Shown here: positions 1-53,356 of the stretch, piece after piece
Layout of the letters: every line of letters starts with the position of its first letter
Position numbering within the stretch: position 1 is the stretch's first letter
NCBI GenBank assembly: GCA_047967505.1
Contig: CM106538.1
Origin: Dipteris shenzhenensis
Lineage: Eukaryota
DNA length: 64,000 nt
Direction: 5' to 3' (one strand)
Position numbers and translations under genes: made by a program
The notes under the pieces: model-generated
The model's input: only the letters and a program-made list of their open reading frames with translations
The model's database searches: none
Told to the model about the DNA's origin: nothing

Positions 1-2389
1 GGGGGAGAAGCGATTGTCATCAAGCTTTTCAACAAACACTCAAAGTGATCCTCATTCCAATTTCTACTTCTGCTTGGTCCATACATTACATCCAAAAAGG
101 CAACCCCTATTGCCATTGGCTCTTGGTACACATTATGTATAAATTCCATTCCCTCCATGTTTGAACCGACTGTGTAGAACCTCCAAGGCCGGGTGGAATT
201 CGGTCCATGACTTGCACCTTCACTTTGTCCCATAATCCACCTCAGATACCCCTTTGCAGCATCAGGCAATGGTGGAGTTTCCTTGCCCTGTTGAAGCTTC
301 ACTTTTAACCATGAGTCAGAGCAACCACGAATCCGATGATACAATTCTGGAGTAATTTTAAAATGTAATCTGCACTCATCCCAATTTTTTAACATTAAAG
401 AAGGCCGTTCTGCCGATATAAACATATAAAGTTCTTCTTGTAGTGCAGCATCTCTCTTGATTTGCATAGCTCGTCCTTCAATATCAAGAATCATGGCATC
501 AGTCTTTGTTTTAGCTATGACTACTCTACCTTCCTTAATGTCATTTTGAATTTGACCAATTTGATCATCACTCAATCCACGCAAGCATCTAAACATTGAG
601 ACTGTGGGTTGCCTACGGCATTTTCCATCTTGTGAATATTTGCCTGCAATGTAATCCTCAAGGATGGAGATCCAACCATCATAAATGGCATCGCTTGTGA
701 TTATCATATGTACATCCTTCGTGGCAAAGCTATTGCCCAATGTTACCTTGCCAGTGTCAATGAAAGCCTGCAAAATATATGCATCCATTAGAATGCAATA
801 ATTAAGAAAACCGACTTGTAAAAAATGATTCATAATTAAAATCTGTACTTACATCCCAATTCTCACGATCTGGATGTCCTTTTGCAAGCCCTTGTTGTGC
901 TTTCTTGGGTTTGTTAAAGAGAATCCATTGTCCCCTCACCTGCTTAAGTATATCAATGTATGGAGATTGTCTCAAGATATTTTGAGACTCCAGGTTTGCC
1001 ATCTTTGATATCTCCACACAAAAGCGTGCAGGACAATTCACTACAATCCTCGCCTGGCGGGTGCGGTAGTAGTTCTTTCTTTGGGCCGTGCTGTTATCAT
1101 CATTAGATGTGAATATTTTAGCAGCATATATTGAATGTTGTCCAGACAGTATCCAGTAGTGGCACTTGGTTAAATCCTTTTTATCTACCCTTTCCAGGGG
1201 CTGCTTTGTTTCAGGATTGAAAGGCATTAAATCCGCTACAGCAGCAGGAGGCCTAGAGTTATAACCGAAGTCTGTAGCAAGCTTCTCCACATGCTCTTTG
1301 TTCAACCCTCTATATACATAGCTTGGAGGAGCTTTTTGACATCTTGCAACTGGAATTGAAAATATTGCATGCAACCCGAATGGGTAGTATTTTTCATATT
1401 CCACCAAGCCTGATGGTTTCTTTTGCCCTTTTTTTCCTATGACCTTTCCACTTGGCTCCAATTCACTCTCGGGGGGGTCACTATGTATAAACCCTCAATA
1501 TCACGTCGTGCGTTCAAGGCCTATATTTAAAATCCCTTATCTGTAAAAGATTTTGTTAATAAAATGTACCCATTTTCTATACAAATCTATAAATTTTTCC
1601 CAAAACTATTTTAAATAGTCCCTTATGTATATTTATTTCTGTAAATCTTAGAAATAAAAAATATCCTTCTGTTGAACTCACGTGATAGGGTTACATATGA
1701 TGAGTGACCCCCCCGAGAATTCACTACCACTGCTTCTTTCCACAACTGCTAGCATGCCCTCTGGAGGTGTTCCTTCTTGTGGTACATCAACTATAGTTAG
1801 CTTTCCTTTCTTTGCCCCTTCTCTGCTACCACCTGGTGCTTGAACCATAGTTGATTTACCTTTCTTTGTTCCTTCCCCACTATCTTCCCCACTCTTACGC
1901 TTCTTTAATGTTGCTGAAACTTTTCGATATGATTCAATGATTGTTGTCATTGTGTGAATTTCATTTCCATCAATTGATTCAACACTTATCTAGCCTCTTG
2001 AGTGCATGTTGTCATCTACATCAGACTTCATACGAGATTCTTTATAATCACTGGGATCCAAGAGAAACTTCTTATTTTGATTTATAATGATCAACAATCC
2101 AATATCTCCCTCTTTTCCAACCACATCTTCAGTGATTTGATGTACCGATCCAACACAAGTGTATGCACTTTTATTAGGTAACAAAACAAACAAGTGAACT
2201 CGTGTCAACTGTGCTCCCTCAATACTATATATGTCAAAGTACCAAGGTATGCTTTTTTCTGCAAATCCACTTACAACTTTCTCAACCTTCTTCACATTTG
2301 TGTCTTTCCTGTAAAAGACCCAAGAAATATACAAACTATCATCTTTATAATCTTTAATGTTAGACAAAACACATTATCGATAAACATAT
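1..2389 (-). pseudogene. Transposon-associated gene with a ParB/Sulfiredoxin-like domain and a possible degenerate amino-methyltransferase-like C-terminal region; runs off the window edge
   Basis: ORFs 1990..2367 and 1678..1950 share a frame across a TAG. Removing the MITE at 1468-1717 plus one TSD restores SSGSELEPSGKV into ORF 802..1461. A GT-AG intron at 768-852 is followed by a frame open to position 1. Motifs: YRGLNKEHVEKLATDF...HYWILSGQHSIYAAK (ParB/Srx GxH-type) and MAIGVAFLDVMYG...NWNEDHF (DPPY-like position). Confidence 0.55.
1468..1717 (+). mobile_element. MITE copy 1 (250 bp; 14-bp TIR CTCGGGGGGGTCAC; 8-bp TSD AATTCACT)
   Basis: Terminal inverted repeats; TSD at 1460-1467 and 1718-1725; two near-identical copies elsewhere in the window. 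Confidence 0.95.
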
Positions 2390-2452
2390 CTGAAATAGAA
2401 TCTAGAATTGACACTAGACATAGTAGTAGATTTGAGAAAGTACTAGATTCTA

Positions 2453-3853
2453 GGGAGATTTGGCCGCACTAGGGAGATTTGGCCGTGCGGCCAAATCTTA
2501 TGGGCTTCTTTTAAAGCACTGGAAGGGGAGGTTTAGATGTGTGGCCAAATCATATGGGCTTCTTTCAAAGCACCAAAGTTTGGGGAGATATGGCCTTGTG
2601 GCCAGATCTTGTGGGCTTCTTTCAAAGCACTAGGGTCTGGAGAGATTTGGATGTGCAACCAAATCTTGCTAGCTTCTTTCAAATCAGTCAAATCTTTCTA
2701 GCTTCTTTTAAATCACTTGGGTTTAGGGAGATTTGGCTGTGCGGCCAAATCTTGCTAACTTCTTTCTAATCACGAGGGTCTATGGAGATTTGGCCGTGCG
2801 ACTAAATCTTTTCAAAGCACGAGGGTTTGGGGAGATTTGTGTGCAGTCAAATCTTGGTAGCTTCTTTCTAATCACAAGGGTCTATGGAGATTTGGCCGTG
2901 CAGCCAAATCTTTTCAAAGCACCAGGTTTAGGGAGATTTGGCCTTTGGCCGTGCGGCCAAATCTTGCTAGCTTCTTTCTGATCACGAGGGTCGATGGAGA
3001 TTTGGCCGTGCGGCTAAATCTTTTCAAAGCACGAGGGTTTGGGGAGATTTGTGTGCAGTTAAATCTTGGTATCTTCTTTCTAATCACAAGGCTCTATGGA
3101 GATTTGGCCGTGCGGCCAAATCTTTTCAAAGCACCAGGTTTAGGGAGATTTGGCTGTGCGGCCAAATCTTGCTAGCTTCTTTCTAATCACGAGGGTCTAT
3201 GGAGATTTGGCCATACTACCAAAGCTTTTCAAAGCACCAGGGTTTGGGGAGATTTGTGTGCGGTCAAATCATGCTAGCTTCTTTGTAATCATAAGGGTCT
3301 ATGAAGATTTGGCCATGCAGCCAAATCTTTTCAAAGCACTAGGTTTGGGGAGATTTGGCTATGATGCGAAATCTTTCTAGCTTTTTATAAATCACGAGGG
3401 TTTAGGAAAACTTGACTGTGCCAAATCTTGCTAGCTTCTTTCTAATCACAAGGGTCTAGGGAGATTTGGCCGTGCGGCCAAATCTTTTCAAAGCAACAGG
3501 ATTTGAGGAGATTTGATTGTGATGCCAAATCTTTCTAGCTTCTTTTAAATCACCTGGGTCTAAGGAGATTTGGCCATGCGGCCAAATCTTGCTAGCTTCT
3601 TCTAATCACGAGGATCGAGGGAGATTTGGCCATGCGGCCAAATCTTGCTATCTTCTTTCTAATCACGAGTGTCGAGGAAGATTTGGTTGTGTGGCCAAAT
3701 CTTTTCAAAGCAGCAAGGTTTAGGAAGATTTAGTTGTGATGCCAAATCTTTATAGCTTCTTTGAAATCACCATGATCTAGGGAGATTTGGCTGTACGGCC
3801 AAATGTTGTATGTTTTGAAAGAAGCCAGAAGATTTGGCCGCGTGGCCAAATCT
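2453..3853. repeat. Tandem array of ~44-55 bp units, each containing the palindrome AGATTTGGCC-N4-GGCCAAATCT; ~205-bp higher-order period
   Basis: Repeated ggagatttggccgtgcggccaaatctt followed by gctagcttctttctaatcacgagggtc or ttcaaagcaccaggttta. Near-identical spurious ORFs start at 2733, 2945 and 3150. Confidence 0.95.
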
Positions 3854-3857
3854 CCCC

Positions 3858-4010
3858 ATTTAAAATTTAAAATTCAAATCTTAAGATTCAAATTTCAAAT
3901 CTGAAAATTTCAAAATCTTAGATTCAAAATTTAAAATTCAAAATTTAAAATTCAAAATTCAAAATTCAAAATTCAAAATCTTAGATACAGAATTCAAATT
4001 TCAAATTTGA
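3858..4010. repeat. AT-rich (AAAATTC)n-like repeat
   Basis: Repeated aaaattcaaaattc; a reverse-complement version occurs at ~5515-5640. Confidence 0.8.
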
Positions 4011-4399
4011 AGATATGAAAGTCAAATCATATACTTAAGACCCTACTTTCAAATCACATTTTGAGATTCCTACTTTTACAAGACTCTTTCTTTCAAATCG
4101 TGGTGTTCCGAAATGGAGAAAGTGGAGAACATGCATGAATTAGGTACACTTTCGATTTCTTTCATTTTCTTACTTGGATGATTGAGTAGCCATTGTTGTT
4201 TATGAGCTTCTGCTCTTTGGATTTCAAGCAATCGTAGGAGCTGAGGGGATTTTGTCCAAAGGGGATTTCGTGAAGAGGGGTTCTGTGAGATTAACTCGAA
4301 AAAGGAGAAGCTTCAGACTGTTGTTGACGACACGGAAGCCTCACTGACAGTCACGCTGGCGAAGAAGAATGGGCCTGCTGAGGGCTACGAACCTGCCAC

Positions 4400-4780
4400 T
4401 GAATAACTGTGAAGAAAACCTGTGCGGAGGAAAAGTAGAGCGGCACTGAAACTGTGCTACGGAGGAGGAAAAGCAGAGTGGCGCTGAAACTGTGCTGCAG
4501 AGGAAATGAGTGGCGAAGGCAACCGAAACTATGGTAGCGCAGACGAAACTGATGACGAGGATGACAGAGGGAACTGTGGTAGCGCAGCCAGCCGGAACTG
4601 TGGTAGCGCAGCCGAAACTGAGGACGAGGATGGTAGAGGAAACTGTGGTAGTGCAGGCCAAAACTAAGGACGAGGACGGTAGAGGGAAAGAGCGCAACCG
4701 AAACTGAGGACGAGGACGGCAGGGGAAAGAGCACAGCGGAGGAAGAGATGACGAGGAGGGCGCCGAAACAGCAGCAGCGT
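4400..4780. repeat. GC/CpG-rich degenerate tandem repeat (gaaactgtggtagcgcagccgaaactgaggacgagg)
   Basis: Several imperfect copies are visible; the overlapping low-complexity ORFs are probably not coding. Confidence 0.75.
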
Positions 4781-5647
4781 AGGAGGCCTTAACGGAGTGG
4801 CACGGATGAAAGGACGGAAGGAAGCGAAGGAGGAGGACGAGGACGGCGGAGGAAGAAGGCAAGAAATCACGCAAAGAAGGGGAAGAAGCAATCCAAAAAT
4901 AGGCTTTTGGGGGGAAAGAAGCAATCCCCCCAAAAAAGCATGCTTTTGGGGGGAGAGAGCAATCCCTCCAAAAGCATGAAGAGCAAAAAAAAAAAAAAAA
5001 AAAAAAAGAGACCTCTTTCTAATCCAACTATTGTGTGTGGAATCTATGGAGAGTTGAATTGGTAATGGAATTTTAAAACCTACATGGTTAAGTACACATT
5101 GTTAGGACAAAACTGGGATGGGGAGCCTCCCGGGACCTCTTATTTTAATATAGTTTTGAAGTTTTTTGCTTGCAATTAGCTAAGCAAGGGTGGAGGAGTG
5201 TTTTCCAAGAACTACCCCATCTAAGATGTTGTGCTAAAGCTCTCAAACCACCCTAGGCACACATTGGAGATCTAGGAAGGGAGAGAACAAGGTGAGCCTA
5301 GCACTTGATCCCCCATGAAGACGAATTCAATTCCTTCTCATAGGTTTACTTTTTATGCTTGGTTTAAAAGGTTAGTTTAGCTTTGCCTTTTAAAGTTTTG
5401 GTTTTTTTATAGTTTTAGATTTTCTAGTTTGCTTTTAAAGTAAAGTATGATTTTAAAGTGTAATAGCGTGAATCATGAAAAGCATGTATGATTTTTTTGA
5501 AAGTAGGATCTCTACATTTGAATTTCAAAATTTGAAACTTGAAAATTGAAATTTGAATTTTTTATTTTAAATTTTGAATTTTGAATTTTAAAATTTAAAA
5601 TTTAAATTTTAAAATCTGGATCTTCAATTTTTAAATTTAACGTTTGA

Positions 5648-6372
5648 AGATTTGTCCATGTGGCCAAATCTTCCTAGTGATTTGAAAGAAGCTAGCAACA
5701 TTTGGCAGCACGGCAAAATCTTCCTAAACCCTAATGCTTTGAAAGATTTGGCCACACGGCCAAATCTCCTAGAACCTGGTGATTTGAAAGAAGCATGCAA
5801 GAGGAGGTTGCATAGCCAAAACTCTCCATACCTTAGTGCTTTGAAAGAAGCCTACAAGATTTGGCCACACGACCAAATCTCCCCAAGTTTGAAAGAACGC
5901 CACAACCAAATCTTCTCAGTGCTTTGAAAGAAGTCACCGAGGTCTCGAAGGATTTGGCCGTGCATCCAAATCTTGCTAGCTTCTTTGAAAGCACCAAGGT
6001 TTGAGCAGATTTGGCTGTGTGGCCAAATCTTATTGCTTCTTTCAAAGCACTAGTGTCTTAGGAGATTTGGCCATGTGGCCAAATCTTGTTGGCTCCTTTC
6101 AAAGCACCAGGGTCTAGGGAGATTTGACCATGTGGCCAAATCTTGTGGGCTTCTTTCAAAGCACCAAGGTCTAAGTAGATTTGGATGTGTGCATAAATCT
6201 TGATGGCTTCTTGAAAGCACCAGCATCTCGGGAGATTTGGTTGTGTGGACAAATCTTGCTATCTCCCTTTCAAAGCACCATGGTCTGTGAAGATTTGGCC
6301 ATGTAGCCAAATTTTGCTGCCTAAAATTCAAAGCACCAAGGTTTAGGAAGATTTGGTCTTGCAATGAAATCT
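5648..6372. repeat. Second array of the GATTTGGCC-N4-GGCCAAATC palindrome family, with an internal orientation switch near 5935
   Basis: Linkers at 5648-5930 read tttgaaagaagctagcaa (reverse complement of the left array); linkers at 5940-6372 read ttgctagcttctttgaaagcacc (same sense as the left array). Confidence 0.9.
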
Positions 6373-8446
6373 TGTAAAGCATTTTCATCCTAAGTCACAC
6401 CATCAGATATCAATATTGAACTATAACAAATGCTATGTACTATGCAGGTGCCACATTGAAAGTGGGGGTTAAAGTCAACTTGCTTGTCAGTGGAAAGATT
6501 ATTGCCATTGGGACAATATTCTCTACATCACATGATGACATGTGCCAAGGTGTGCCCTTGGGAGAAAACAATGTATCGGTGGCGATCGATATGTGTATGG
6601 ATGAAAGTGCACTTCTTCCATTTCCTACAATGGATGCATTCTTAGTCTATGAGGCTTTGGGTAGTGTTGTTCGTTGGAAAGCACAATCAATGAGTTGTGT
6701 GGACAATGTCAATGGAGCTATTGTACCAATGAATGATATAACATTAGATACCATTGATGTTGAACCTCTATGTGAATATGATGAGTTTTCCATTCGAGAA
6801 TCATGGAAGGACAAGAAAGCCGAAAACCAAGAGCATTGCAGAGGTTGTTGTTTTGTATGTCTACCCATTTGAACCTATAAATTTTGAGATGCTTGGTGAA
6901 GGTAATCTAGGTGTGGGAATTGAAAAGTATCACAGTGATGTATCAAGCATTGATACCATCCACTTAATAAAATGGCCCATTGCACAAATAACCTTTTTAG
7001 TTGGAACTTCATTAAGAATCGATGACACCATGAATTCTTCAAGTGGTTCTGGGAAAAAGCACATGGAAGATGAGGACCCAATGAAAAAATCCACAAAAAA
7101 GAGGCGTTACTACATGATAAAGAGAAAAGCTAAAAAACATGGCATGCCATTAGCATCATCTAGACTCACAAGGGATGCAGTCATAAAAGTATCTATGATT
7201 GATTGTTGTAAACAAAATTGTTGTCAATTTGTCGATCGTCAAATGATCTCCAAATTACGCAGAGTATTGGGGCCAAAGTTTGGAGGCTCGCACCAATTAT
7301 GTATATGACACTCTTGGGGTTGCTTGTCGAAAAGATGACAATGGGTAGTTCAAATATGTCTTTTCATTAAATGGTATTCAAGTTTGTTGTAGAGCATGGT
7401 ATGAAATGCATGGTATTCCAAAAACAACATTTTATCGATACAGTGAGCAATTTGAAATTGGTATACGAAGGTGCATACATGGTAATAAAGGAATCGTGCG
7501 GAGAGGTTGGGACCACACAGAACTGGGTAGAGCCATAATCCAAGATTTTGTGGATAACAATTCTGAGCGTATGCCACACAAAAGTAGAACACTTCAGGAT
7601 GGATCAAGGGAAACACAGTTGGTGATACCGGATGTATACAAGCAGGTTGATATTCTCTGTGAAGTTAACATGCAATTAAAGCATAGTTTGGGTTGTAAGG
7701 AGATGTCAACTTCCACATTCAACCGCATATGGAACTCTGAATTCAAGCATGTAACTTTGTCAAAAACAAGTGAATTCTCTAAGTGTGGTTTATGTAGTGC
7801 AATCAAGGCTTAGCTTGCAGCGACAAAATGCCAAAATGAACGTAATAAGTTGATGGAAGATAGAAGAAAGCACATGTTACAGCAAAAAAGTTGTAGAAAT
7901 GTGTACTACACTTGGCGAGATTTTCTGAAATGTATCCTCAGACATACTTGTGCATTATCCATGATAAGATGGACCAAAAGAAGACAGCCATCCCTAGATT
8001 ACGCAATCGTTCAAAGGACATAGACAAATCGTTTCAGCTCCCAGTGGCTTTGACTGGCATGATAACACATGGACATGGTCAAGGACGTTATGGTCACTTT
8101 TCTTTATCCTTGTGGCCGTCGGATCCTAACTTCACAATTGGTTCATTGGCTTTGTGTTTGAGAAATCTTGAAAGATTTGATAACCATGCACTTGGAGATT
8201 TGGTACATGATGGGATGCCAAGGTCTGACAATGCTCTGCTAAACGCACTAACCTCAAGAGAAGCATTGGATTCTCACTATGTTTCTAATGGCAAGCAACA
8301 ACTTCATCTTGGAGCAGTGGGTGGAACATTCAAAGACCTTGGACTTGGAAGTTCCCATCAAGAAAATCCTTATAAGAAACTACCCGAACACCTATTGTTG
8401 CAGTTGGATAATTGTGGTTTTGAAAACAAGAATAGGTACTTGTTTG

Positions 8447-11106
8447 TGTTGGGATATCTCAAGGTGTATGCCTCAGGCACACCTTGGTTTCTATGTGTGA
8501 GTGCTAGAGGCACAGTTAGGTGCCCATAAGCATAGTTAGGTGGTGGAAGAGCCACATAGGATGATTGAGAGAATCTAGGAGCAGATTGAGGAGATGATTG
8601 TGGAGCTCTGAAGTCATCAGTGATGTCAATGAGCATGTATGAGGTGCCTACTTAAGGACCTCATTCTTCTTCATTCTACAAGCAAGTAATGCAAGTATTC
8701 TGAGTTTGTGTCCACTCTTTGCTTTCCTTTCAGTGTTCAAACATGATATCAGAGCCTTTGATCCCCCTTGAGCCCATTTTTGCCACATCATCTTCTTCTT
8801 CTTCATCTTCTTCTTCTCCATTTTCCTCCTTCTTCCCAAAATCTTTGAGAGCTTGGTTCTCCGCCTACAAACCACCATTGCCCAAACCCTCTGAGCTGGA
8901 AACTCCTCTAGTATGGGCAAACTTCCACCTGCAAGCAATTGAAGAAAAAATGTCTCTGTTGGCTGCCATTCTCCAAAAAGCGAATTTCTTCTGTTGCTCA
9001 ATACTCCCTACCTGCTCTGCCATTGCCTGAGCCCTCTTAGGAGTAGATGGGCGACCTCAAGACGAAGATTTTGAGCCATTTTTCAGGTCGTTTGGTAAAT
9101 TATTAACGAGAGAGAAATCATCAAAACTCAAGTTCAGCCTGTGGCAACTCTCCCGGGCAAAAGTCCGCACCATTTCATCCAACCTCTGTGCTGGACCCTC
9201 TCTGGTATATGAGCTTTCTTTTGCTTCAAAAAGCCCTCTTTTCCTTGCTTTGAAGAGTGAGCTACAAGCCCTCCAAGTTCAGCCTTTTGGTTTTGACAGT
9301 TTTGGACAAGTTTTTGAAGATGATGCTACATAAAATGCTACTCTAGCATTTCTGGTTTTTTTGAAACTTTCAATAACTTCAGTACAAGTGTGGCTTCAGT
9401 TTTGTTTTGAATTACTAGACCTGGTTTTGATTGGAAAGTTCTCATTTTAAGCCACCTCTGTGAAGCATGTAAGAAGAAGCATCATTGTTTGAATATTGGT
9501 CACTAGTCTTTGCTACATCAAGTGCTCATATTTTGGAAGTCTTTCAGTTATTTTTTGCCTTGTAAGAGAGATAGACACTGCCCAATATCTGGGTTAGACC
9601 CTCTCATGGCTACCCTATTGAATCTAGAAAAGTTCAATGGAAAGGGCTTCCATACATGGCAGATGAAGGTGAAATTTGCATTGATGAGGGAGAACTTATG
9701 GGGACTTGTCAAACCTACTCCTACCGCTTCTTCTACGGCCTCCAATGCTGGAGAATCCTCAACTCCGACACGACCGGCAAGGGATCCAGCTAGAGAAGAA
9801 AAAGCATATGGTATCATTGCTCTTGCTTTAGGAGATGATTATATACACCATATCTCTGACTTGGAGTCTCCTTCGGAAGCTTGGTAGAAGCTTGACATGA
9901 TTTTTGGTGCTAGCTCTCACATCTCTAAACTATCACTTAAAATCTCTTTCTTTGAATTGAAGATGACTAGTGGTACTACTTTAGCAGCTCATGTCAACTA
10001 TATGCGGAGTCTTATGACTCAATTAGCTTCTATCAACTCTCCTATTTCTCCAGATGATGCTATGGCAGTGTTACTTAAGAGCATGCCTGAAGATTATGAT
10101 CACATAGTTACCACTTTGAAAAATCTTCCTAATCCTAATCTTGAAGGTATTATCTCTGCTCTCCAAGAAGAAGAAAGGCATATGGAGCTCAGGAAAGGCA
10201 ATGACACTGTGTATGCTGTAAAAGTCCAGAAGGGCAAGTATACCCCTTGCAATCACTGTGGAAAGACAAATCACCTTTCAAAGGACTGCTTCAAAATTAA
10301 TCCATGCAAGCACTATGGCAAGAACAACCATAATGAGAAGTTTTGCAGAGCCAAAGCAAAGACAGAAAATGCAAATCTACTTTCAGTTGATAAGCCTCCA
10401 CAAGATGAGGCATCCTTTGAAGATTATGCATTTTAAAACATCTCTATGTATGCTCCAGATATCTCTTTTTATGTCAAGGTACTCAGCCTGGATAGTCCTC
10501 CAAAATGAATGAAATAAACCATTGTGTTTTGTGTGTTTTGTAAACACCTCTGGTCACCTTATGATGTAGGCCATGTGTATGTTTTGCTCCATGGTACCTC
10601 CTGCAGACATTGTGTGCATGTACATGCAGGGGAGATAACCATTGGAATGTCTTTTTGTATCCCTTTTGTTTACCTTACACCCAAGGGAACCCTTGCTAGC
10701 ATGAGAACCTAGCCATAGATTAATCCTTGACCACCATGAGATGGCATGAGAAACTATGAGACTAGATGTATCCTTGACATAGCCTGAGGCATTCCCTTGA
10801 GGGGGGGTTTGTTGGGATATCTCAAGGTGTATGCCTCAGGCACACCTTGGTTTCTATGTGTGAGTGCTAGAGGCACAGTTAGGTGTCCATAAGCACAGTT
10901 AGGTGGTGGAAGAGCCACATAGGATGATTGAGAGAATCTAGGAGCAGATTGAGGAGATGATTGTGGAGCTCTGAAGTCATCAGTGATGTCAATGAGCATG
11001 TATGAGGTGCCTACTTAAGGACCTCACTCTTCTTCATTCTACAAGCAAGTAATGCAAGTATTCTGAGTTTGTGTCCACTCTTTGCTTTCCTTTCAGTGTT
11101 CCAACA
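8447..11106 (+). mobile_element. Non-autonomous gag-only LTR retroelement (TR-GAG-like, copia-type gag), 2660 bp
   Basis: 297-bp LTRs at 8447-8743 and 10810-11106 (TG...CA; 4 differences counted). TSD GTTTG at 8442-8446 and 11107-11111. PBS TGATATCAGAGCC (Met-type with one mismatch) at 8744; PPT GAGGGGGGG before 10810; no pol. Confidence 0.95.
9606..10436 (+). pseudogene. gag: Copia-type Gag (UBN2-like region plus two zinc knuckles) with one in-frame TAG
   Basis: LEKFNGKGFHTWQMKVK...EAW*KLDMIFG...; CNHCGKTNHLSKDC and CKHYGKNNHNEKFC. Confidence 0.85.
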
Positions 11107-12883
11107 GTTTGCATACCTATCATTACTTGTTGCTCGAGGGATTTTCAAGTCAATTCAATTGGGATTCTTGATGGTTGGGCATACACATGAGGATATTGAT
11201 GCAATGTTTAGCAGGTTTTCAGAGAGGTTAAGAACTAGCCAAACATTGACATTTGCACATCTCATGGATACTTTTAGACAATGTGAGGAGTCTTCTCCAA
11301 TGCCATTTTTGGTAACAGAAGTCCCTGATTTCAAGAGCTATGTTGATGGATGCCTGTGCGATGGGAAAGATTCTTTAGTGGGACACTCAAAGCCTCTCCA
11401 ATTTCAGTTCTTTATGCGAAATGAAGTTCCTATCATGCAATATAAAGTGCATCCACGATCATTAGATTGGCAACCAAGTGAAGGTGGCATTGAGTTGTGG
11501 AAGAGACATCCAGATGGTCATCCAATGCTACCAAGTGGAGAGCCACCTTATGTAACCATGTTCAAGTATGTGAAGGATCACTTAGATGTGATAGTTGGTA
11601 TCAAGGAGTATGTACGCTTTTGGGAAAAATGGGCACACTTGCAAGGTCCAGAAGCATCTTTCACAAAGTTTTACAAGCCAGTAGTGAAGTACTGGAAGAG
11701 CATGATTGATGAGCTTGATAAACCAAACAATAGTGTAGAGGGCATGTACGAGAGATTTTGGCCAAAGACGCAACATATTGATTGTGTGCAAGTAGTTGAT
11801 AATGAAAACGATGAGTTTCAAGGAATTGAAGAGTTGAATGATCATTACTGTGGACCTCAAAGGAAAAAGCCAAAACAATCATTTGATCCAATGGTTGATG
11901 TACAAAAAGGACACTTTCTTTTGGTCCGACCAGTAGAAAAAATTTACCCGATTTGGCTAGGCATTGCTCAAACTGATGTACAGAAGGATAATAAATCTAA
12001 AAACTTCAAGAAGGTTTTCATACAATATTGGGCACCTATATGCAAAAGACACTGCACAAATTGAGGAGGTATATGCAGATTGTTGGAACAAGGTTTGGAT
12101 GTGCAATAAAGGTGATCCTCCACGTTGGGAATCTGTTGATGCTATTGTATGGTCATGGGTTCCAAAATGTAACCTCTCAAAGAAGGTTTCCTCAAAGAGC
12201 AGCAACCTCCCCATCAAGGTGAAGATACCAACCATTGCACGCAAGCGAGCTTTATCCAATTTTTCTCATAGAATAGATTCCGACTCTGATGCTGACTCCA
12301 CAATGGAGTGAAGGTACTTGAAAAGCATGACTTTTTTTTCCTTGCACAACAATAATTTAATTGAATACTGACAAATATTTGGAAGGTATGACATTGATCT
12401 TTTTTCTTTATCTTTTTTTTTGCAGACCATTGCTTTGTGGTTGCAAGTTCTGCACACTCGACAAAATATCAAGGACTAGTGTTGCATTCTTACTTTTTCT
12501 CCAACTAAACTAAAATGGTGTTTTTGAACACCACCTTTTTTCGAGAAGAGGCAAAAAATGCTTCGTTAAACTCAAACAATTGTGAGTTTCATATACACGG
12601 CCAAATCCAAGGAGAAAGTCAATGGAGTGCACTCAATGCATTGTAATTGTAACCCCTCAAAAAATACCATGCATTGGTCGAAACCTCAACATTTGACATT
12701 TTATTTATGTTGATGCAAACCATGCACATTTGCAAGATTTGGATGGACTGCCAAATCTATGGGAAAAATCAATGAAAAACATTGAATGTTACATAATTAC
12801 AACCCCTCAAAAGTTCCCAAATTATCAGGATTTTCCCAAATTCTCTAATATGGTGTTTATATTTTTGCATCTTCTTCTTAGCT

Positions 12884-15800
12884 TTACTCTTCATGGATTT
12901 GTGGTTCTTGGATGTCCTCCCATGCAGCGAATCCCTTGCCCGCATTGCTTGCACCATGACCACCTCGAGCGTTGTTTGTGTGTGCAGGCCATTCCCCCGT
13001 AGGCACATGTTGCATGAGTAAGTTGAATTTGGATGCATAACCTTCCACATCTTGATTTCCCTGGTCCAAGCGGCGCAATCTATCCAGAGTTTGCAAAATC
13101 ATTTTTTCCTGACGAAATCATCTCAAGAATTTAAACATCTCATGCAATGCATTGCTGCAAGTGACACCACCACCATGCCTTGAGTTCTTGAAGTAGGCTA
13201 CCTTCACTCTATAGTGCGACTTCTCCATGTCTTGTGTATTCCAAATGGACAAAGGGCCCCAATTTTGTACAAACCATGGTCCGTGTGGATAGAGAATATG
13301 CTGCAAACATGATGAGAATCATTTAAGCAACAAAAACTATTTATAAAGCAAGTGCTAAATATTACAATGGTGCCAAGATTACCATGTAATGCATAATGTG
13401 CGACTCCCCCCCTGCTTTCACCATTAATTGCATAAACTCTTTCATAGCCATCCTGAATCTTTCATAACACATTTCATCGATTTGAACCTGGCGAAGCAAT
13501 TTTATCAATGCATCTATCTTTGTCCATACTCTAGCTCTCAAATTTGCTACTTGAGGATGAGAAGCCTTATTGGTCATGCATTCACACAATGCTTTCCAGT
13601 ATTCCCAACCCAAACTACTTTGAGACAATGTATGCTTGTCTTTGTCGAGATTGTGGTTCGATAGGAATCTCCTTGCCTTCCCTCCACCCATGGACACTTT
13701 TGCAAGAAGATTTTGTGTTGCCCCATACATTTTCTTATCCTCCTTAAGTTTGACATGTCCTCCATGGAATCCCATCTTTGACAGCAACTTCTCAGCTTTT
13801 GCAATGCACCGTGCAAATACTTCTTGTGGAATTAAATTCCCAGCATAAACAAGATGCAAATACAACAACTTATCAAGTACACACAGTTCTGTGTGTAAAG
13901 TACATATGTGTACTCTCTCAAGTGGGATGGGCAAGATGGGATCCCAGTTTGGATCCTTCTTGTTGCGATTGGGAGCTTGTGTTTGGCTGCAAGATAGAAT
14001 GTCATTCTCCCATTGTAAGCCAGCCTTTTGCTTACGTTGTGAACACATGCAATAAAGGCATGTGTTCATTGCATTTGCCCCTATATCACAACCGTGCAAG
14101 CACTTGAGGGTTTTCAAATCACCAACAAGATGCCATTCAACTTGAAATGTTCCATGGCCATCGACTGTTAATGTTTGCCCTTCCTCTTGTCTTTGGATTG
14201 TTGATAAGATTCCTGTTCTATCTAGAACCCACTTCAATGTCTCATGGCACTCTTTCGGAGTCTCAAATACTACAAGCCACCATATATCTTTCTATGATTG
14301 CATTGAGAAATCTTGCTCTACTTCTCTAACTTGTGTTCTTTCACCAATTGAGCTTCATTGATTTTGATGACAAGTATGAGCTCTCCATTGCAATCTGTAC
14401 AACAAAAGAGAGAAATCATTAGGATAAACATGATATAGGAAATGAACTAAGTAAAGTGTAATGCTATAATGGATTTCCTCTTACCATCCTCTCTCATGCC
14501 ATAGAATTTCACCATTACTTGTTGCAGTTTCTCAACATTTAAGTAGACATTGTTGAAAGCATTCAACTCAAAGTTTTGCAAGCCAGATTTCTTTTTACTC
14601 TTCCAAGTCATTGTGCCCCTTACGCAATGGTACCCTCCAAGCATTTCTCTTGCATGTTGGTTTCTTTCTCGCTGTGCATGTTTCATAGACCAAGGTGTGG
14701 GTAGGGGTACTGTAGACTTCTTATACTTTCCCAAAATAGCAGACTTGAAAATTTTGAAAACAGATGTGTAAGTTTCACGACTTACACTAGTAGTATCACA
14801 GGCTGCAAGCATCTCCTTTGCATCCACAATATCCTTGAAGTCCTTCATCACCTCTTCAGCAACTTGCACATGTAGGCACTTGTGTCTTGGCCCTTGGGTC
14901 CCTTAGTATCCCAATGACATCGCTTGACTTCAATAAACTAGCTAGAGCATATGAACAATCAATACCATCCCTGTCCATTCTTGCTCAAGCCACATGCTAC
15001 GTTCTCTTCACGGAGCTATGCCACTTTTTGCTCCAGTGGTACATGTGCACCCACTAATGCCCTGGACAATTGTGACTAGGTGATCGTCACTTCAATATGA
15101 GCATGTGTATGCTTGTCCTTATAAGATGAGAAGTCCACCTGAACACCCTTTATGAAGTGCATGTACAAGAATTTGGCAAAGTTCATTGCTACTTCATTAG
15201 AGTGTAACGCCTTCCCATATACCTTGATATATATCTACCTGGCATTTTTTCAGATCCATTTATCTTGGCAATTTGTGATCTTCCATCTACCATGCTGGTT
15301 CAAAGCTTCGGTTGGGGTGTTTCCACCTTCGGATCCTCTATTTTTCTTCTATGTCTCCTAGCTTGGATGCTAAGGCTTCACCTTCATCGACCTCCAAGGA
15401 CCAGATCGCCAAAAGCTCTTGTTTTGAGTCAAGCTTGTTGACTTCTTTCCATTGCATGCCTGCAAAACCAACACCCATGGTGTTGGTTGCTAGTTCATAT
15501 GTGATAATTATTGACAAAAGAACTAAGAAATGATAAATCTAATATTAAAAGCATGCAAAATTTTAAATATTAAACATATAGACCTCCAGGATGAGAATAT
15601 ATGGATGTTCGTACGATAGTGTCTGGTACATGCTTGGGGGTTGCACTCGCAACCCTGCATAGCCGCTCGAACTACATGCGTTGATGCTCGGCATGTCGAG
15701 CCTCCTCTTCAGCCTCCTCTTGCATCAATGGATGCTTGTCTACTCTTTTGGAACCTTTTGGTTCCCTAGGTGGGGGAGGAGTACCCTTCCTTGTGACATT

Positions 15801-15935
15801 TTCACAGGAAATTATTGCTTGTTGCAGAGAGTGAAGTGCGGTTGAATACTCTGTGTGTGATAGCATGTAAGGTCTGCATGCATCACATTCAACACTTGTG
15901 TGGAGCCAATGTGTGACATAGGATGCAAGATGCAA
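12884..15935 (-). pseudogene. RAG1/Transib-like (CMC-Transib clade) transposase, spliced and decayed; upstream limit uncertain
   Basis: Motifs in order: LVIKINE; PKECHETLKWVL; LVGDLKTLKCLHGCDIGANAMNTCLYC; VHICTLH; HYM|HILYPHG...GPLSIWNTQDMEKSH (GT-AG intron 13301-13382). Confidence 0.7.
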
Positions 15936-16178
15936 ATGTCACATGCAATATGCTCAATGCAAGATGAATATGTTACATATCCCATGCAAGATGCAAACTA
16001 TTACATGTGCTATGCAAAATAAGTTATAACAAAATTACTTTAATTTAAGAAAATGTACATGTTGCAATCTTTATTTACATTGAATGGTAAACATTAAATT
16101 TTATTTTTGAACAAGAATTTCATTACAATAAGTTTGACACATGGGGTCCCAAAAATATTACAAGACCAAAAAGGTGTC

Positions 16179-28709: not shown

Positions 28710-28956
28710 CTCGGGGGGGTCACTATGTATAAACCCTCTATATCACGTGCGTTCAAGGCCTATATTTAAAGTCCCTTATCTGTAAAAAATTTCATTAATA
28801 AAATGTACCCCTTTTCTATACAAATCTGTAAATTTTTTCCAAAACTATTTTAAATAGTCCCTTATGTATATTTATTTCTGTAAATTTTAGAAATAAAAAA
28901 AATCCTTCTGTTGAACTCACGTGATAGGGTTACATATGATGAGTGACCCCCCCGAG
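28710..28956 (+). mobile_element. MITE copy 2 (247 bp; TSD TTCCAATG)
   Basis: Same TIRs and body as 1468-1717; TSD at 28702-28709 and 28957-28964. Confidence 0.95.
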
Positions 28957-35344: not shown

Positions 35345-38300
35345 TGTAAAGAAAGAGGGAGAGAGATAGGAGACTCAAGTTCAGCTTTCTTCACAACACA
35401 CAAAAGAGAGAGGACACAAGGTTGGAGGGTGAAGCCTTTCTTCACTTTTGCACACAACAACAATACAATAGAAGAGGGAAATACCCTATATGTCAAAACC
35501 TAGAATACGTGGTTCATATGTGAACCCAAACCAAAAACATACGTGGTAGTCTAACTACACCACGAGTACAACTAACATAGGCGGTGACATAAATGATAGT
35601 CATCCAGGAGATATGTCGGGGATAGAGCTTGATATCTCAACACTCCCCCTCAAGCTCAAATCCATCTCACGTACACCAAGCGAGCTCCTAAATCTGCGAA
35701 GCTTCTCGGTACCCAATGCCTTCGTAAAGATATCAGCCACCTGCTCCTCAGTGCTGACATAGACAAGATCAATCTCACCAGCTAGAACCTTCTCTCTCAC
35801 AAAGTGATAATGCACCTCAATGTGCTTCGTTCTAGCATGATAAACTGGGTTATTAGCAAGCATGATGCTGCTAATGTTGTCACAATGAATGACAACTGCT
35901 GCATGAACTGACTGTCCCATATCTGCAAGTAGCTTCCGTAACCAAGCTACCTCACATGCAGCCATTGCTGCACCCCTGTACTCAGCCTCTGTGCTTGACA
36001 AGGCAACTGTTGGCTGCTTCTTGCTGCTCCAACTGATGGCACCACTCCCAAGGGAAAACATAAAACCATTAGTAGATCTCCTGTCTGAGACACTACCAGC
36101 CCAGTCAGCATCTGTGTATCCATGTACCTGTAATGCACACCCAGCTTCATAAAACAGTCCATAATGCAATGTGGACTTCACATACCGCAGTATGCGCCTA
36201 GCCGCATCCAAATGTGGCTTCCTCGGTGCCTGCATAAACTGACTCACCAGCCCCACAGCATAGCTCAAATCTGGTCGGGTTATAGTCATGTAAATCAAGC
36301 TACCTACTATGCGCCTGTACATAGTAATATCTTCAAGAAGCTCACCTGACTCTGCATTGAGCTTCACATTCTGCTCCAATGGAACAGAGATAGGCTTACA
36401 GCCTGTCATCCCATATTTGGACAGCATGTCCAAACCGTATTGCCTTTGCAACAGCCATATCCCACTCGGGGATCTAATAACCTCAATGCCCAAGAAGTAA
36501 CGCAGTTCTCCCAAATCCTTCATCTCAAATTTTTGCTTCAACAGCAGCTTCACTTCATTAATGTCTGCATCACTATCACCTGTAATAATCAAGTCATCAA
36601 CATAGATGACTATAAGCACAATCCCTCTGTTTGTCCTTTTCACATAAAGTGAAAAATCTGAATTGGAAATCTGAAATCCAATAGTGACAAGATATTGCCC
36701 TATCTTGTCTGACCATGCCCTCGGCGCCTGTTTTAAGCCATACAAGGCTTTGCGCAACCTGCATACAAAATCGGGGTGTGCATTATCCTCATAACCTTCT
36801 GGCTGCATCATATAAACCTCTTCCTGCAAGTCACCATGCAAGAAGGCATTTTTCACATCCATCTGATGCAAAGACCATCCCTTTGCAGCAGCCATAGCAA
36901 TTACTGCTCTCACGGTTGCCATCCTTGCAACTGGGCTGAAAGTTTCCTCATAGTCAATTCCATATGTCTGTGCAAAACCTTTGGCAACCAATCTTGCCTT
37001 GTACCTGCTAACAGACCCATCAGCATTGTGCTTTACTTTGTAAACCCACTTGCAGCCAATAGCCTTCTTATCATGAGGCAAAGGCATCAAATCCCAAGTG
37101 TGGTTTGCATCCAAGGCAGCCATCTCTTCATCCATAGCTGCTTCCCAATTTTTATGCCCTGCTGCATCCTCAAAACATGTGGGCTCTGGCTCCTCTAGAA
37201 CCTTGACCATATAAGCATAGTGATGTGCTGTATACACATCATATCTCAGCCTGTCAACTGGATACTTAATACGAGTGGACCTCCGTACAACTGGATCAGT
37301 TGCAGGCGTCTTTAAATCATTCCTGCTTTTCCTTGCACCAGGTGTAACAACAGAAGGAATCCCAAGTTCCTCATCAAGGCTCATTTCAGAGCCGCTTGAC
37401 TCTCCATCAACATGAGAGCTACCAGCAGACACATCAAATACTGGAGCATGGTCCACTTTTTCTTTTCCCTTATGTGATACCTGCACAGCACTATCAGGAC
37501 TGCCATGTGACGATTCACTAGATCTCAATCTCCCTGTCCATGCATTAGATCCACTAGTAGAGGACTCTCTGGGTCCACTCAAGGCTTGAGATTGCTGCTC
37601 TGCATTTATTGCAGCATTCCCATTTCCTGCATCTGCATCTCCTACCATAACAGTTGGTGCATACCAGCTGCTCATTTCATCAAAAACAACATCTCTGCTC
37701 ACTTGCATTTTGCGGGTGGAAGGGTTATAACAGCGATACCCTTTCTGGTGCTGAGCATATCCAATAAAGATGCATTTTTCTGCCTTTGGATCCAGCTTTG
37801 TTCTCTTCTCATCAGGAACATGAACATAAGCTATGCAACCAAATACCTTCAAGTGAGAAATATCTGGTTTTTGGCCTGTATACATTTCTTCAGGCGTCAT
37901 GCCATGGACAGCTGCAGTGGGGGTTCTGTTCATAATATAAACAGCAATTGCTACTGCTTCAGCCCAAAAATAATCAGGCATGTTTTTCTCATTTAGGATC
38001 GCCCGTCCTACTTCTGCAATATGCCTGTTCTTCCTTTCTGCAACCCCATTCTGCTGAGGGGTAGACCTGCATGAGTACTTCCTTTGAATTCCCTGTTCTT
38101 TCAGATATTCACAAAATTCTTCTGAAAAGTACTCTCCCCCTCCATCAGATCTTAGCACTTTAATATGCACACCTTTCTCTTTTTCAACCATGGCCTTAAA
38201 AGCCTTGAAATGGCTGAACACTTCACTTTTGTGCTTCATAAAATAAATCCACACCTTCCTAGTGTAGTCATCAATAAACGTCACATAATAATGGCATCCA

Positions 38301-40634
38301 CCAATAGAAGCAGCTTTGGTTGTCCAAACATCTGAATGGATCACTTCCAAAGGTCTTCTGCTCACCTTAGCATTTTTGGGAAATGCATGTCTGGCCTGCT
38401 TACCCATTTGGCATGCTTCACATACCTTTTGCATTCCCTCAACTCTGAATTTAGGCAAACCTGCAACAATGTTTTTCGTTTGCATAGATTTCAGCCTTTG
38501 TATATTCACGTGCCCAATGCGCTTGTGCCATATCTCAATATCTGCAATGACACCTCTTCCATGCGCAAACATAGCAGCTTTCACCTCAGGCATATCAACA
38601 TCCAAGGTGAACATTCTGCCATTTTTGTTGCCTTTCGCAACCAAGCGGCACTTATTTTTCAAGTCCTCAACGAAGCATCCATCAGGGTTAAATCTAACCT
38701 GCAGACCTTGCTCAACCATCTGGCCAACTGAAACCAGGTTCTTAGTGATTTTTGGAACATGAAGTACATCTGCCAAGTACTTTGTTTTGCCATCCTGCAT
38801 AGCCAATGGCACTTTACCAACCTGCGTAATTGGGTGCGCAGTATCATCACCTGTTTCAACATAACCTGGCTTATCCAAATTTCTGACATCATGAAACCAC
38901 TCACCATGACTGGTCATGTGGTTAGAGGCACCTGAATCAACATACCAAACATCATTGCAAGCTGCAGCATCTCCTGACATGGAGTTAACCATATGCTGCA
39001 TCACAAAAAGGTGCTCATTTCTGTCGTCACCATGCCCACTTGATGATGCATAGTTGCTTTGCTGCAACTTCCCACTTTTGATGTCATTCTGTTTTTTATA
39101 GCATGTATTCTCCTTGTGTCCAGGCTTTCCACAATAATAGCATTCTGTGCTGCTATTTACTTGCTGGTTCCTTTGCCATGAACCACGGCCTCTTTGGCTC
39201 CCCCTGCCTCTAGAACTACCACGTCCTCCTCCATAGGACTGGTTTTCCTGTTGTTGCTGTTGGTTCTGATTTCCTGCACGGCCACCAGAACGGCCTCTTC
39301 CTCTACCCCTGCCTCTACCTGTATTCGAGTAGAAAGCAGTCTCTTGAGAAGTTGAGGTGGCTGAACCACCATTCCTTTGCTCTTCACTCAGCAAGAGAGC
39401 AATAAGTTCCTGAAAATCAGGAAATGTTTCACGGACTCCAATGGATGTCCGAAATTGTGCATAATCTTTCCCAAGACCATTCAAGGTCACGGACACTAAG
39501 TCCTCATCATCAACAGGTGCTCCAATGGAGGCAAGAGAATCTGCAAGGCCTTTCACCTTCAAGGAATACTCATTTATATTCAGATTTTTCCTTTGCACAT
39601 TGTGCAACTCCTGCTTTAGCTGCATCTTTCGTGCTTTGGTATTTGTGCTATACAGCTTCACCAATGTATCCCATGCCTCCTTAGGCGTCTCTAGATCCTG
39701 TATATGCACAATCATAGAATCTGAAATGCTAACGGACAGCCAATACAGGCATTTTCTGGCTTTTTCATGCCATTCTTTAAAGGCCTTCAATTCAGCAGGA
39801 GTGGGAGTAGCACCCAAAACTGGTTCTGCAGTTTCACCACTGATGTAATCCCAAACTCCCTTTCCCATAAAGAAGTTTGTCATCCTGAACTTCCATGCTT
39901 GGAAGTTGTTCTTGTCAAGCTTCTCACTGACAATGGTAGACAGATTCTCAGACATTTTACAAATCACGAATTGCAACAGCAACCTGTAAACACAGCAAAT
40001 GCCTCAGAAGGGCAAATAGCAAAACTTCTGCAAAGAGCCTCACAGGGGCAGATCTGCAACACTGACGAAAGTGGTATTTCACCACACAGTCACTTCCTCG
40101 TGACGATTTTGCATCAACAGGCAACAGGCATGAATCTGCAACTCCCAATATCTCTGCACATAGGCATACGATGCAATTTCTATGGCACCTTTCCACCGAC
40201 TAGCCGCGCGGTGGTCGCACAGCAAAAACAGGGCCTTTTTCTGAGTGCCTGCGAAGATCTTCCGCCTTCAAAACGGGCCCCGAAACGGCCTCAAAACGGG
40301 CCCCGAAACGGCCTCAAATTATACTGCGCTCTCGCCGCACCGCGAAGGGCCTCTCAATCTGAAGCAGTGCACTCCTGCACTTCTGGCTGTGCTACCTGCA
40401 GAGATTTGCTCCCAAACTCGAAATAGGAAAGCTACACTGGTCCTCTTACCAGGACACCACAAACTTGGCTAGCTTTCTTGAGCTCCTTACCAAGAACAAG
40501 GCTCTGATACCATGTAAAGAAAGAGGGAGAGAGATAGGAGACTCAAGTTCAGCTTTCTTCACAACACACAAAAGAGAGAGGACACAAGGTTGGAGGGTGA
40601 AGCCTTTCTTCACTTTTGCACACAACAACAATAC
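35345..40634 (-). mobile_element. Ty1/copia LTR retrotransposon with intact gag-pol; full 3' LTR (35345-35642) but only 122 bp of 5' LTR (40513-40634)
   Basis: PBS TGGTATCAGAGC at 40501-40512 (minus); PPT GAGGGGGAG abutting TGTTG at 35642; the shared LTR part is identical; no TSD found. Confidence 0.93.
35600..39955 (-). CDS. gag-pol: Copia Gag-Pol polyprotein (Gag, CCHC, protease, integrase, RT, RNase H), ~1451 aa from MSENL
   Basis: Single open frame with CYYCGKPGHKENTC, WYVDSGASNHM, WHKRIGH, DGGGE, YKARLVAKG, QMDVKNAFL, YVDD, ADIFTK. Confidence 0.96.
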   Translation of the reverse strand: MSENLSTIVSEKLDKNNFQAWKFRMTNFFMGKGVWDYISGETAEPVLGATPTPAELKAFKEWHEKARKCLYWLSVSISDSMIVHIQDLETPKEAWDTLVKLYSTNTKARKMQLKQELHNVQRKNLNINEYSLKVKGLADSLASIGAPVDDEDLVSVTLNGLGKDYAQFRTSIGVRETFPDFQELIALLLSEEQRNGGSATSTSQETAFYSNTGRGRGRGRGRSGGRAGNQNQQQQQENQSYGGGRGSSRGRGSQRGRGSWQRNQQVNSSTECYYCGKPGHKENTCYKKQNDIKSGKLQQSNYASSSGHGDDRNEHLFVMQHMVNSMSGDAAACNDVWYVDSGASNHMTSHGEWFHDVRNLDKPGYVETGDDTAHPITQVGKVPLAMQDGKTKYLADVLHVPKITKNLVSVGQMVEQGLQVRFNPDGCFVEDLKNKCRLVAKGNKNGRMFTLDVDMPEVKAAMFAHGRGVIADIEIWHKRIGHVNIQRLKSMQTKNIVAGLPKFRVEGMQKVCEACQMGKQARHAFPKNAKVSRRPLEVIHSDVWTTKAASIGGCHYYVTFIDDYTRKVWIYFMKHKSEVFSHFKAFKAMVEKEKGVHIKVLRSDGGGEYFSEEFCEYLKEQGIQRKYSCRSTPQQNGVAERKNRHIAEVGRAILNEKNMPDYFWAEAVAIAVYIMNRTPTAAVHGMTPEEMYTGQKPDISHLKVFGCIAYVHVPDEKRTKLDPKAEKCIFIGYAQHQKGYRCYNPSTRKMQVSRDVVFDEMSSWYAPTVMVGDADAGNGNAAINAEQQSQALSGPRESSTSGSNAWTGRLRSSESSHGSPDSAVQVSHKGKEKVDHAPVFDVSAGSSHVDGESSGSEMSLDEELGIPSVVTPGARKSRNDLKTPATDPVVRRSTRIKYPVDRLRYDVYTAHHYAYMVKVLEEPEPTCFEDAAGHKNWEAAMDEEMAALDANHTWDLMPLPHDKKAIGCKWVYKVKHNADGSVSRYKARLVAKGFAQTYGIDYEETFSPVARMATVRAVIAMAAAKGWSLHQMDVKNAFLHGDLQEEVYMMQPEGYEDNAHPDFVCRLRKALYGLKQAPRAWSDKIGQYLVTIGFQISNSDFSLYVKRTNRGIVLIVIYVDDLIITGDSDADINEVKLLLKQKFEMKDLGELRYFLGIEVIRSPSGIWLLQRQYGLDMLSKYGMTGCKPISVPLEQNVKLNAESGELLEDITMYRRIVGSLIYMTITRPDLSYAVGLVSQFMQAPRKPHLDAARRILRYVKSTLHYGLFYEAGCALQVHGYTDADWAGSVSDRRSTNGFMFSLGSGAISWSSKKQPTVALSSTEAEYRGAAMAACEVAWLRKLLADMGQSVHAAVVIHCDNISSIMLANNPVYHARTKHIEVHYHFVREKVLAGEIDLVYVSTEEQVADIFTKALGTEKLRRFRSSLGVREMDLSLRGSVEISSSIPDISPG

Positions 40635-53265: not shown

Positions 53266-53356
53266 AGAGGGACCCCCCTCATTCTTCAAACCTCGATCAA
53301 GCTCCTCCTCATCGAAATCAACGGATTTGCGGGAGCTCGACGGAATTTCAGCAGCG

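Follow-up and report, generated by a model that had tools for sequence, protein, structure and literature searches.

We analyzed a 64,000-nucleotide stretch of DNA from Dipteris shenzhenensis (NCBI GenBank assembly GCA_047967505.1, contig CM106538.1), referred to below as the window, and found at its left end two divergent genes separated by arrays of a palindromic sequence. An accessory gene, designated ORF2, lies on the minus strand from position 2373 down to position 1, where it runs off the edge of the window; the palindromes come next, and a transposase gene with the Pfam domain DUF7869 occupies the plus strand at 6448-12311. The element formed by these features would span at least 12.8 kb of the window, with its left end beyond the window edge. 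We read the region as the decayed remains of a large DNA transposon in which a DUF7869 transposase is accompanied by a divergent ORF2 whose protein recognizes the arrays and acts on the promoter region or chromatin of its own element, and we give this reading a probability of roughly 0.6. Both genes are dead in the window copy because ORF2 carries an inserted miniature inverted-repeat transposable element (MITE) and an in-frame stop and has no start codon, while the transposase is split by a long terminal repeat (LTR) element; the copy has no function of its own.

The divergent genes and the palindromes between them

The earlier note on this DNA had placed a minus-strand gene at 1-2389 and a plus-strand DUF7869 transposase at 6449-12311, and both genes proved to be real. 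When the 1125-aa fern protein P0102 was aligned to the window by tblastn, matches were obtained on the minus strand at 2310-1687, 1443-838 and 740-9. The first of these, with P0102 residues 3-195, spans an in-frame TAG at 1990-1992 in the N-terminal region of ORF2 (1718-2373, minus strand), a region that has no in-frame ATG and to which no fold was assigned. It is followed by the 250-bp MITE (1468-1717), which has perfect 16-bp terminal inverted repeats (TIRs) and an 8-bp target-site duplication (TSD; 1460-1467 and 1718-1725) and does not belong to the original structure of the element. The frame of ORF2 continues across this insertion, and 1468-1717 was ruled out as an intron on finding the MITE. 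Two other copies with 94-95% identity occur at 28710-28956 and 32529-32286, giving three in the window, and the family looks hAT-like judged by the length of the TSD. The next segment of ORF2 (853-1467, minus strand) encodes 205 aa with the motif (S/D)GQHS and holds the ParB/Srx-fold domain. An 85-bp GT-AG intron (768-852, minus strand) separates it from the last exon within the window (1-767, minus strand), which encodes a helical linker followed by the opening strands of a methyltransferase-like domain before running off the left edge, and with which P0102 residues 439-687 align at 37% identity. The position of this intron is conserved in relatives of ORF2; the exon break after W-(D/E/K)-V was matched in the related loci L001, L002, L004 and L006. 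A Pfam search with the ORF2 pieces of the window matched no family.

A second ORF2-type fragment was found on the minus strand at 57972-58652. It consists of an FCP1/NIF-like domain alone, aligned by tblastn to P0102 residues 804-992 with 44% identity (E 3e-41) and matched by Pfam NIF at 58014-58652 with 37.7 bits against a cut-off of 21.8. Pfam detected no further part of the element among 31 open reading frames (ORFs) of the 40-58.7 kb region. The fragment lies beside a copia element (59010-63398, minus strand) that is split into two ORFs.

The transposase was recognized by Pfam DUF7869 matches to two ORF pieces, 7897-8529 (E 1.1e-13) and 11006-12064 (E 5.3e-27), with the profile breaking at 8446/11112. 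Its 5' part (6448-8446, plus strand) consists of four ORF pieces in different frames, which cover the N-terminal region together with the beginning of DUF7869, and its 3' part (11112-12311, plus strand) encodes the remaining DUF7869 and the C-terminal region up to the stop codon. Enumeration of GT-AG junctions that could join the upstream ORF pieces was uninformative, introns and frameshifts being indistinguishable. Between the two parts lies a later insertion of 2665 bp (8447-11111, plus strand), a gag-only copia-type element with LTRs of 297 bp (8447-8743 and 10810-11106) that differ by four mismatches, TG..CA ends and a 5-bp TSD, GTTTG. Pfam found Retrotran_gag_2 and a zf-CCHC zinc knuckle in it and no pol. 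When the sequence was read by eye, the transposase frame was found to read through continuously across 8447-11111. On sequence grounds, the segment is a young non-autonomous LTR retroelement nested in the transposase, and an intron at this position was ruled out. The transposase belongs to Pfam DUF7869, with Sola as a candidate label; we found no open-access paper or preprint tying DUF7869 or PF25273 to Sola, and ESM Atlas returned only unnamed clusters and DUF7869 clusters for the transposase. A DUF7869-like fragment also occurs at 41175-41330 (plus strand) by a copia element; it shares 38% identity over 52 aa with the GHTH..D region of the transposase (E 6.7e-7), contains a stop and is probably what remains of another element in the family. 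Two long ORFs (309 and 151 aa) at 13362-14902 on the minus strand converge on the 3' end of the transposase. They gave no Pfam match up to E 5 and may belong either to the element, as its third gene, or to another transposon.

The two genes had also been described as a divergent pair with about 40 palindromic sites between them. The arrangement stood, while the count came down to 34 ungapped sites; a few additional array units contain indels and fall outside this number. The palindrome, AGATTTGGCC-N4-GGCCAAATCT, is 24 bp long. A search of the 64-kb window at three or fewer mismatches gave 29 matches, against 0.00 expected from 100 shuffles; 28 of them lie in 2475-6314 and the remaining one at 12735. 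With up to six mismatches out of 20 positions the number rose to 37 (mean of 1.5 in 20 shuffles), distributed as 22 in 2475-3853, 12 in 5648-6372 and three elsewhere (12735, 18442 and 59820). Half-sites with at most one mismatch numbered 61, compared with ~6.3 expected by chance in the whole window: 54 in the arrays, one at 4656, two at 12599 and 12749, and four scattered. Array 1 (2456-3853) is built of 46- and 57-bp units in a ~102-bp higher-order repeat and holds 22 palindromic sites, whereas array 2 (5648-6375) holds 12. The units at 5648-5905 of array 2 are inverted relative to all others, and those at 5925-6375 are oriented like array 1. Comparison of 3510-3703 in array 1 with 5951-6144 in array 2 gave a 76% match, and the palindrome and the 57-bp unit are common to the flanks of both genes.

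The inner borders of the arrays are formed by A/T-rich microsatellites, a 7-mer repeat at 3858-4027 for array 1 and its inverted partner at 5510-5650 for array 2. The two are 70-76% complementary and make an inverted pair around a GA-rich core of ~1.5 kb. This central region (4028-5509), which contains 38-, 46- and 69-bp tandem repeats at 4426-4728 and an A-run at 4985-5007, is presumably the divergent promoter and 5' untranslated region. A first intron with a donor at ~5292 and an acceptor at 6448 had been suggested for the transposase side. We found a GT at 5292 and an AG at 6446-6447, but no ORF reads into the donor. An Rfam scan of 1-15000 matched no family. The possibility that the arrays are hairpin-RNA precursors was ruled out, their stems being just 10 bp.

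Downstream of the transposase stop codon, two units ~150 bp apart (12590-12825) each begin with a full or half palindrome akin to the sites in the central arrays. The palindrome at 12735-12758 has three mismatches, and the half-sites at 12599 and 12749 belong to these units. The earlier note had put the right terminus of the element at 12573. That position is probably wrong because the palindrome-related units lie beyond it.

Folds and motifs of the ORF2 protein

The ORF2 protein is ~1100 aa long and is composed of an N-terminal region, a ParB/Srx fold, a helical linker and a beta-class N6-adenine/N4-cytosine (N6A/N4C) methyltransferase fold, followed in full-length relatives by an FCP1/NIF-like C-terminus. 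An AlphaFold2 model of 853-1467, built with 45 sequences, reached a predicted local distance difference test (pLDDT) score of 89.1. When this model was compared with 48,161 PDB representatives by VIA, the top eight rows were all ParB/Srx folds, with Z from 9.2 to 5.1: PadC (Z 9.2, root-mean-square deviation 3.1, 99 aligned), KorB (9.0), pNOB8 ParB-N (7.8), SerK (7.7), Arabidopsis sulfiredoxin (6.6), SbnI (6.4), Atu1540 (6.0) and human sulfiredoxin (5.1). A Z near 9 is modestly above the usual background of 7-8, and the ParB/Srx call leans on the agreement of the top rows. Foldseek gave the same picture, with ParB, Noc, KorB, Srx, SbnI, PadC or Atu1540 in 27 of the 30 matches listed, the best of them at an E of just 2.2e-3. 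The ParB/Srx fold that had been guessed for this gene was therefore borne out by the model and by the top VIA rows. Within the motif (S/D)GQHS, H111 and S112 were invariant in 13 sequences.

The methyltransferase-like part, also predicted beforehand, was supported by a model of the corresponding exon in a relative, L006 (1788-3197; pLDDT 69.5), in which the helical linker occupies residues 26-177. Foldseek returned 66 matches at E of 1e-3 or below for this model, including CcrM at 3.7e-7, and when residues 181-419 were compared by VIA the top 20 entries were beta-class N6A/N4C methyltransferases or type III Mod subunits (Z 12.4-14.7). The fold was found in L006 with the permuted order motif IV ... 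motif I, and the window retains about the first 70 residues of this domain. The motif IV position reads D-V-M-Y in the window (residues 226-229 of exon 1-767), D-A-A-H in P0102, D-T-T-H in L004 and P0009, and D-L-T-K in L006. Where beta-class methyltransferases have the glycine loop of motif I (FxGxG), L006, P0063, P0009, P0045 and L002 show a D-x-F-(S/G/A/C)-x-G loop after a strand. The sole Pfam match to a methyltransferase model was that of P0063, which at 17.6 bits was below the cut-off of 26.7.

The NIF part of the ORF2 copy at 1-2373 falls outside the window. In full-length relatives, Pfam NIF scored 61.9 bits in P0102, 62.3 in P0071 and 35.0 in P0009 (cut-off 21.8). HAD phosphatases have the catalytic motif DxDx(T/V). 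The corresponding site reads L-D-L-N-G in the second window fragment, in L002 and in the Adiantum proteins, i.e., in five of the six alignment rows, P0009 being unaligned there.

Relatives of ORF2 and their upstream arrays

A full HMMER scan of 1.84 billion representatives with the ORF2 domain at 853-1467 identified 93 relatives. The named ones come from the fern Adiantum nelumboides and the liverwort Riccia sorocarpa and are labelled hypothetical proteins. The gene is multicopy in the fern, since a search with P0102 residues 440-800 returned ten Adiantum clusters, all of them close paralogues and one with 20 members. Word-based homologue searches with two ORF2 pieces found nothing, ESM Atlas gave nothing usable for the ORF2 N-terminus, and a search of genome contigs found no relative. 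A scan of metagenome contigs yielded eight clear ORF2 loci and one weak one. A viral-contig match, L010, was dismissed as spurious, the matched strand having no ORF.

We found tandem arrays upstream of ORF2 in all six of the related loci that have at least ~430 bp of upstream DNA, and the arrays end ~100-300 bp from the ORF2 start. L003 and L007 end without upstream DNA and hence are outside this count. In five of the six loci the array units contain a palindrome of ~22-24 bp with a 4-bp center. The palindromes of L001 and L004 are of the CCCTATGGCC-N4 type, and those of L002, L005 and L008 are of the GGCTCAAAC-TTAA-GTTTGAGCC type, the GCTCAAAC-TTAA-type site of another clade. In a tree of ORF2, three clades received full support; the palindrome types track these clades, a match that would also arise from shared descent alone. 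The core TGGCC-N4-GGCCA is common to the window, L001 and L004. This core was kept despite protein identity of just ~40% and differing spacers between sites, which argues for constraint on the site. The placement of arrays directly upstream of ORF2 in the related loci supports a functional link between the two.

In L002, a second array of that locus's palindrome type lies at 4593-4847, within a gap of 2.5 kb that separates the methyltransferase-like from the NIF-like exons; either a site-bearing intron or a nested derivative could account for it. Short GC-rich tandem repeats were observed just past the palindrome array, at its end distal to ORF2, both in L005 (137-269, 27 bp) and in the window (4426-4728; 38, 46 and 69 bp), and no sequence similarity was seen between them.

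Two other features were recorded in the window. A copia element on the minus strand at 35600-40003 has a single uninterrupted gag-pol ORF of 1467 aa and may be intact. An ORF at 44627-45385 (minus strand) gave weak Pfam matches to Myb and NDUFA12, both about at their cut-offs, and may represent a piece of a host gene, or else a chimera lying among the transposons.

A proposed self-binding transposon and its place among known elements

We propose that the ~34 palindromes serve the element in cis and would be bound by a dimer of one of its own proteins, most likely that of ORF2, and that the bound protein would act on the DNA or chromatin of its own element or on the divergent promoter, as self-regulation or anti-silencing. 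Similar proposals have been made for the ParB-type accessory genes that Sola-1 and Plavaka elements carry in algae. That the two genes and the arrays form one element is inferred from indirect support: the 57-bp unit at both genes, the palindrome-related units after the transposase stop, the multicopy state of ORF2 in Adiantum and the published precedents.

Several observations weigh against the reading of a self-binding element. Neither termini nor a TSD were detected, the left end being beyond the window, and a TIR search between 12300-16000 and 52000-58100 returned nothing meaningful. The window contains no second copy joining both genes, and none of the nine related loci, on contigs of 1.2-7.5 kb, contains a transposase. 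One of these loci, L006, has 55-bp direct repeats in which no inverted repeat was detected. The ParB-like domain matched no Pfam family in the window or in the 25 relatives scanned and no NCBIfam model up to E 1 (P0102 gave weak HAD matches only), and a PDB sequence-profile search with it produced a single chance-level match (E 0.62). ORF2 yielded no helix-turn-helix (HTH) or other recognizable DNA-binding domain, although its ~150-aa helical linker was not searched separately, and the N-terminal region of the transposase is cysteine-rich and could bind DNA. Motif IV of methyltransferases is canonically (D/S)PP(Y/F), a form found neither in the window nor in the relatives aligned. ParB (GxxR), sulfiredoxin and DGQHR proteins have an arginine at the P-motif position; in ORF2 this position, placed by eye, appears to be occupied by the serine of (S/D)GQHS instead of an arginine. 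Mutation of the P-motif arginine is reported to abolish NTP binding in ParB-fold proteins (PMC12704722). The canonical catalytic motifs appear to be missing in all three domains, and catalysis by any of them is doubtful because the ParB-like, methyltransferase-like and NIF domains all have degenerate motifs.

The missing shared termini also bear on whether the region is a single element. It might instead hold two separate insertions or head-to-head remnants of related elements, with the arrays as their subterminal repeats, or the arrays might be a local satellite. The A/T microsatellites and array units that lie inverted around 4028-5509 could then be two ends facing each other, the window is crowded with nested transposons, and the separate ORF2 fragment at 57972-58652 has no transposase nearby. 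However, the palindrome and the 57-bp unit are shared by both sides, half-sites are scarce elsewhere (four of the 61 outside the element region, against about six expected by chance in the whole window), and a divergent pair of a ParB-methyltransferase gene and a transposase has been published for Sola1-1_Ec32 (PMC12477816). We consider separate origins distinctly unlikely. It is very improbable that ORF2 is a host or domesticated gene that merely stands beside a transposon, with the array as a promoter-proximal repeat. A conserved intron and a long ORF conserved in several lineages would fit such a gene, but ORF2 is multicopy in Adiantum, it is broken in the window by a stop codon, the MITE and the loss of its start codon, a second broken ORF2 fragment lies in the same window, and its relatives were found in patchy lineages only.

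If the region is one element, the transposase rather than ORF2 might bind the palindromes, much as in the subterminal motifs of En/Spm or Ac, with ORF2 acting at another place or on different substrates. In favor of this, array 2 directly adjoins the transposase gene and palindrome-related units occur past the transposase stop, near the expected right subterminal region. The cysteine-rich N-terminal region is accompanied by a weak TNP1/En/Spm Pfam match at 6420-6872 (20.6 bits, cut-off 21), and ORF2 has no recognized DNA-binding domain of its own. On the other hand, most of the sites are internal and not terminal, the arrays adjoin the ORF2 start in every one of the six related loci with upstream DNA, and the published algal arrays are tied to the ParB-type gene (bioRxiv 10.1101/2025.02.11.637652). 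Binding by the transposase is thus somewhat unlikely, and it and binding by ORF2 are not mutually exclusive.

Returning to ORF2 as the binding protein, we also put forward a more speculative and rather improbable version in which it is a non-enzyme tether made of three pseudo-enzyme domains. Dimers would array on the ~34 palindromes with the methyltransferase-like and ParB-like domains as DNA readers, and the FCP1-like domain (DLNG, with the general-acid Asp changed to Asn) would hold the phosphorylated C-terminal domain of RNA polymerase II, or a similar phosphoprotein, at the divergent promoter, so that the element stays transcribed in silenced chromatin. If true, land-plant transposons would have a new means of countering silencing, in which the sites and the protein co-evolve separately in each lineage.

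We compared the element with known systems. Members of the Sola superfamily have TIRs and a 4-bp TSD (PMC12477816, PMC3627910). Sola1-1_Ec32 of the brown alga Ectocarpus is 21.5 kb long with 282-bp TIRs and a 4-bp TSD, and carries, on the strand opposite its transposase, a gene for a 1104-aa ParB-like and N4C/N6A methyltransferase protein that its authors propose to bind and modify its own transposon (PMC12477816). Likened by description and not by sequence, both are giant DNA transposons with an opposite-strand accessory gene for a ParB and methyltransferase protein of ~1100 aa (1125 aa in fern P0102). The Ectocarpus element differs in its brown-algal host, the nearest named relatives here being from a fern and a liverwort, and the portions seen of its description mention neither a C-terminal FCP1/NIF-like domain, present in the relatives here, nor palindrome arrays; moreover, the catalytic motifs are degenerate in ORF2. 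In the red alga Bostrychia moritziana, Plavaka elements carry PAG3, a ParB and 2-oxoglutarate (2OG) oxygenase protein with adjacent tandem inverted-repeat arrays, and PAG2, an N6A methyltransferase with SET, and the PAG proteins are read as self-binding and self-modifying (bioRxiv 10.1101/2025.02.11.637652). The inverted-repeat arrays beside a ParB-type gene, their self-binding reading and the carriage of an N6A methyltransferase (PAG2) resemble the situation here. In that account, unlike in ORF2, ParB is fused to the 2OG oxygenase while the methyltransferase is separate and fused to SET, and the transposase is Plavaka (EnSpm/CACTA group), not DUF7869, in a red-algal host. As in Sola1-1_Ec32 and with Plavaka PAG3, a ParB-type gene stands beside a transposase in the window, here with 34 palindromes between them.

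Fusions of a ParB fold with an N6_N4 methyltransferase are described as typical of phages (PMC12704722, PMC4738411). Phage and prophage fusions share with ORF2 both folds, their order and their presence on mobile elements; they differ in being prokaryotic, in having canonical motifs and no phosphatase-like domain, and in a proposed role in anti-defence or DNA packaging. No Pfam or NCBIfam sequence model connects the ORF2 family to these fusions. The ParB-parS and KorB-OB systems are alike in that ParB-fold proteins act on repeated palindromic sites, and KorB was among the two best structural matches of ORF2 (Z 9.0), but these proteins bind DNA by an HTH beside the CTPase fold and require the P-motif arginine, neither of which was found in ORF2, for which no separate HTH model was run. 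VANC of the VANDAL elements (Mutator-like, eudicots) is an accessory protein that binds repeated motifs of its own element and counters silencing, as described in the Bostrychia preprint (bioRxiv 10.1101/2025.02.11.637652). It belongs to an unrelated family, has no ParB or methyltransferase fold, and works through loss of DNA methylation.

The earlier note was aware of no plant in which this layout had been described. We likewise found no land-plant account in open-access papers or preprints, but the layout has been described in algae, in Sola1-1_Ec32 and Plavaka. It is thus of a kind already known from brown and red algae; what is new is its occurrence in a land-plant-type lineage, the addition of a third, phosphatase-like domain, the degeneracy of the motifs and a set of explicit palindromes that differ between lineages. 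Transposon accessory proteins that act on their own element are rare, VANC being the clearest example described, and ParB-type accessory genes have so far come from algal giant transposons, without experiments. The window and its relatives carry such genes into the land-plant lineage (fern and liverwort) and add a phosphatase-like domain to them. They offer a testable pairing of a 24-bp palindrome having a conserved TGGCC-N4-GGCCA core with a protein family having lineage-specific site variants. If binding and an effect on chromatin were demonstrated, the system would offer a tractable model of how plant transposons mark themselves.

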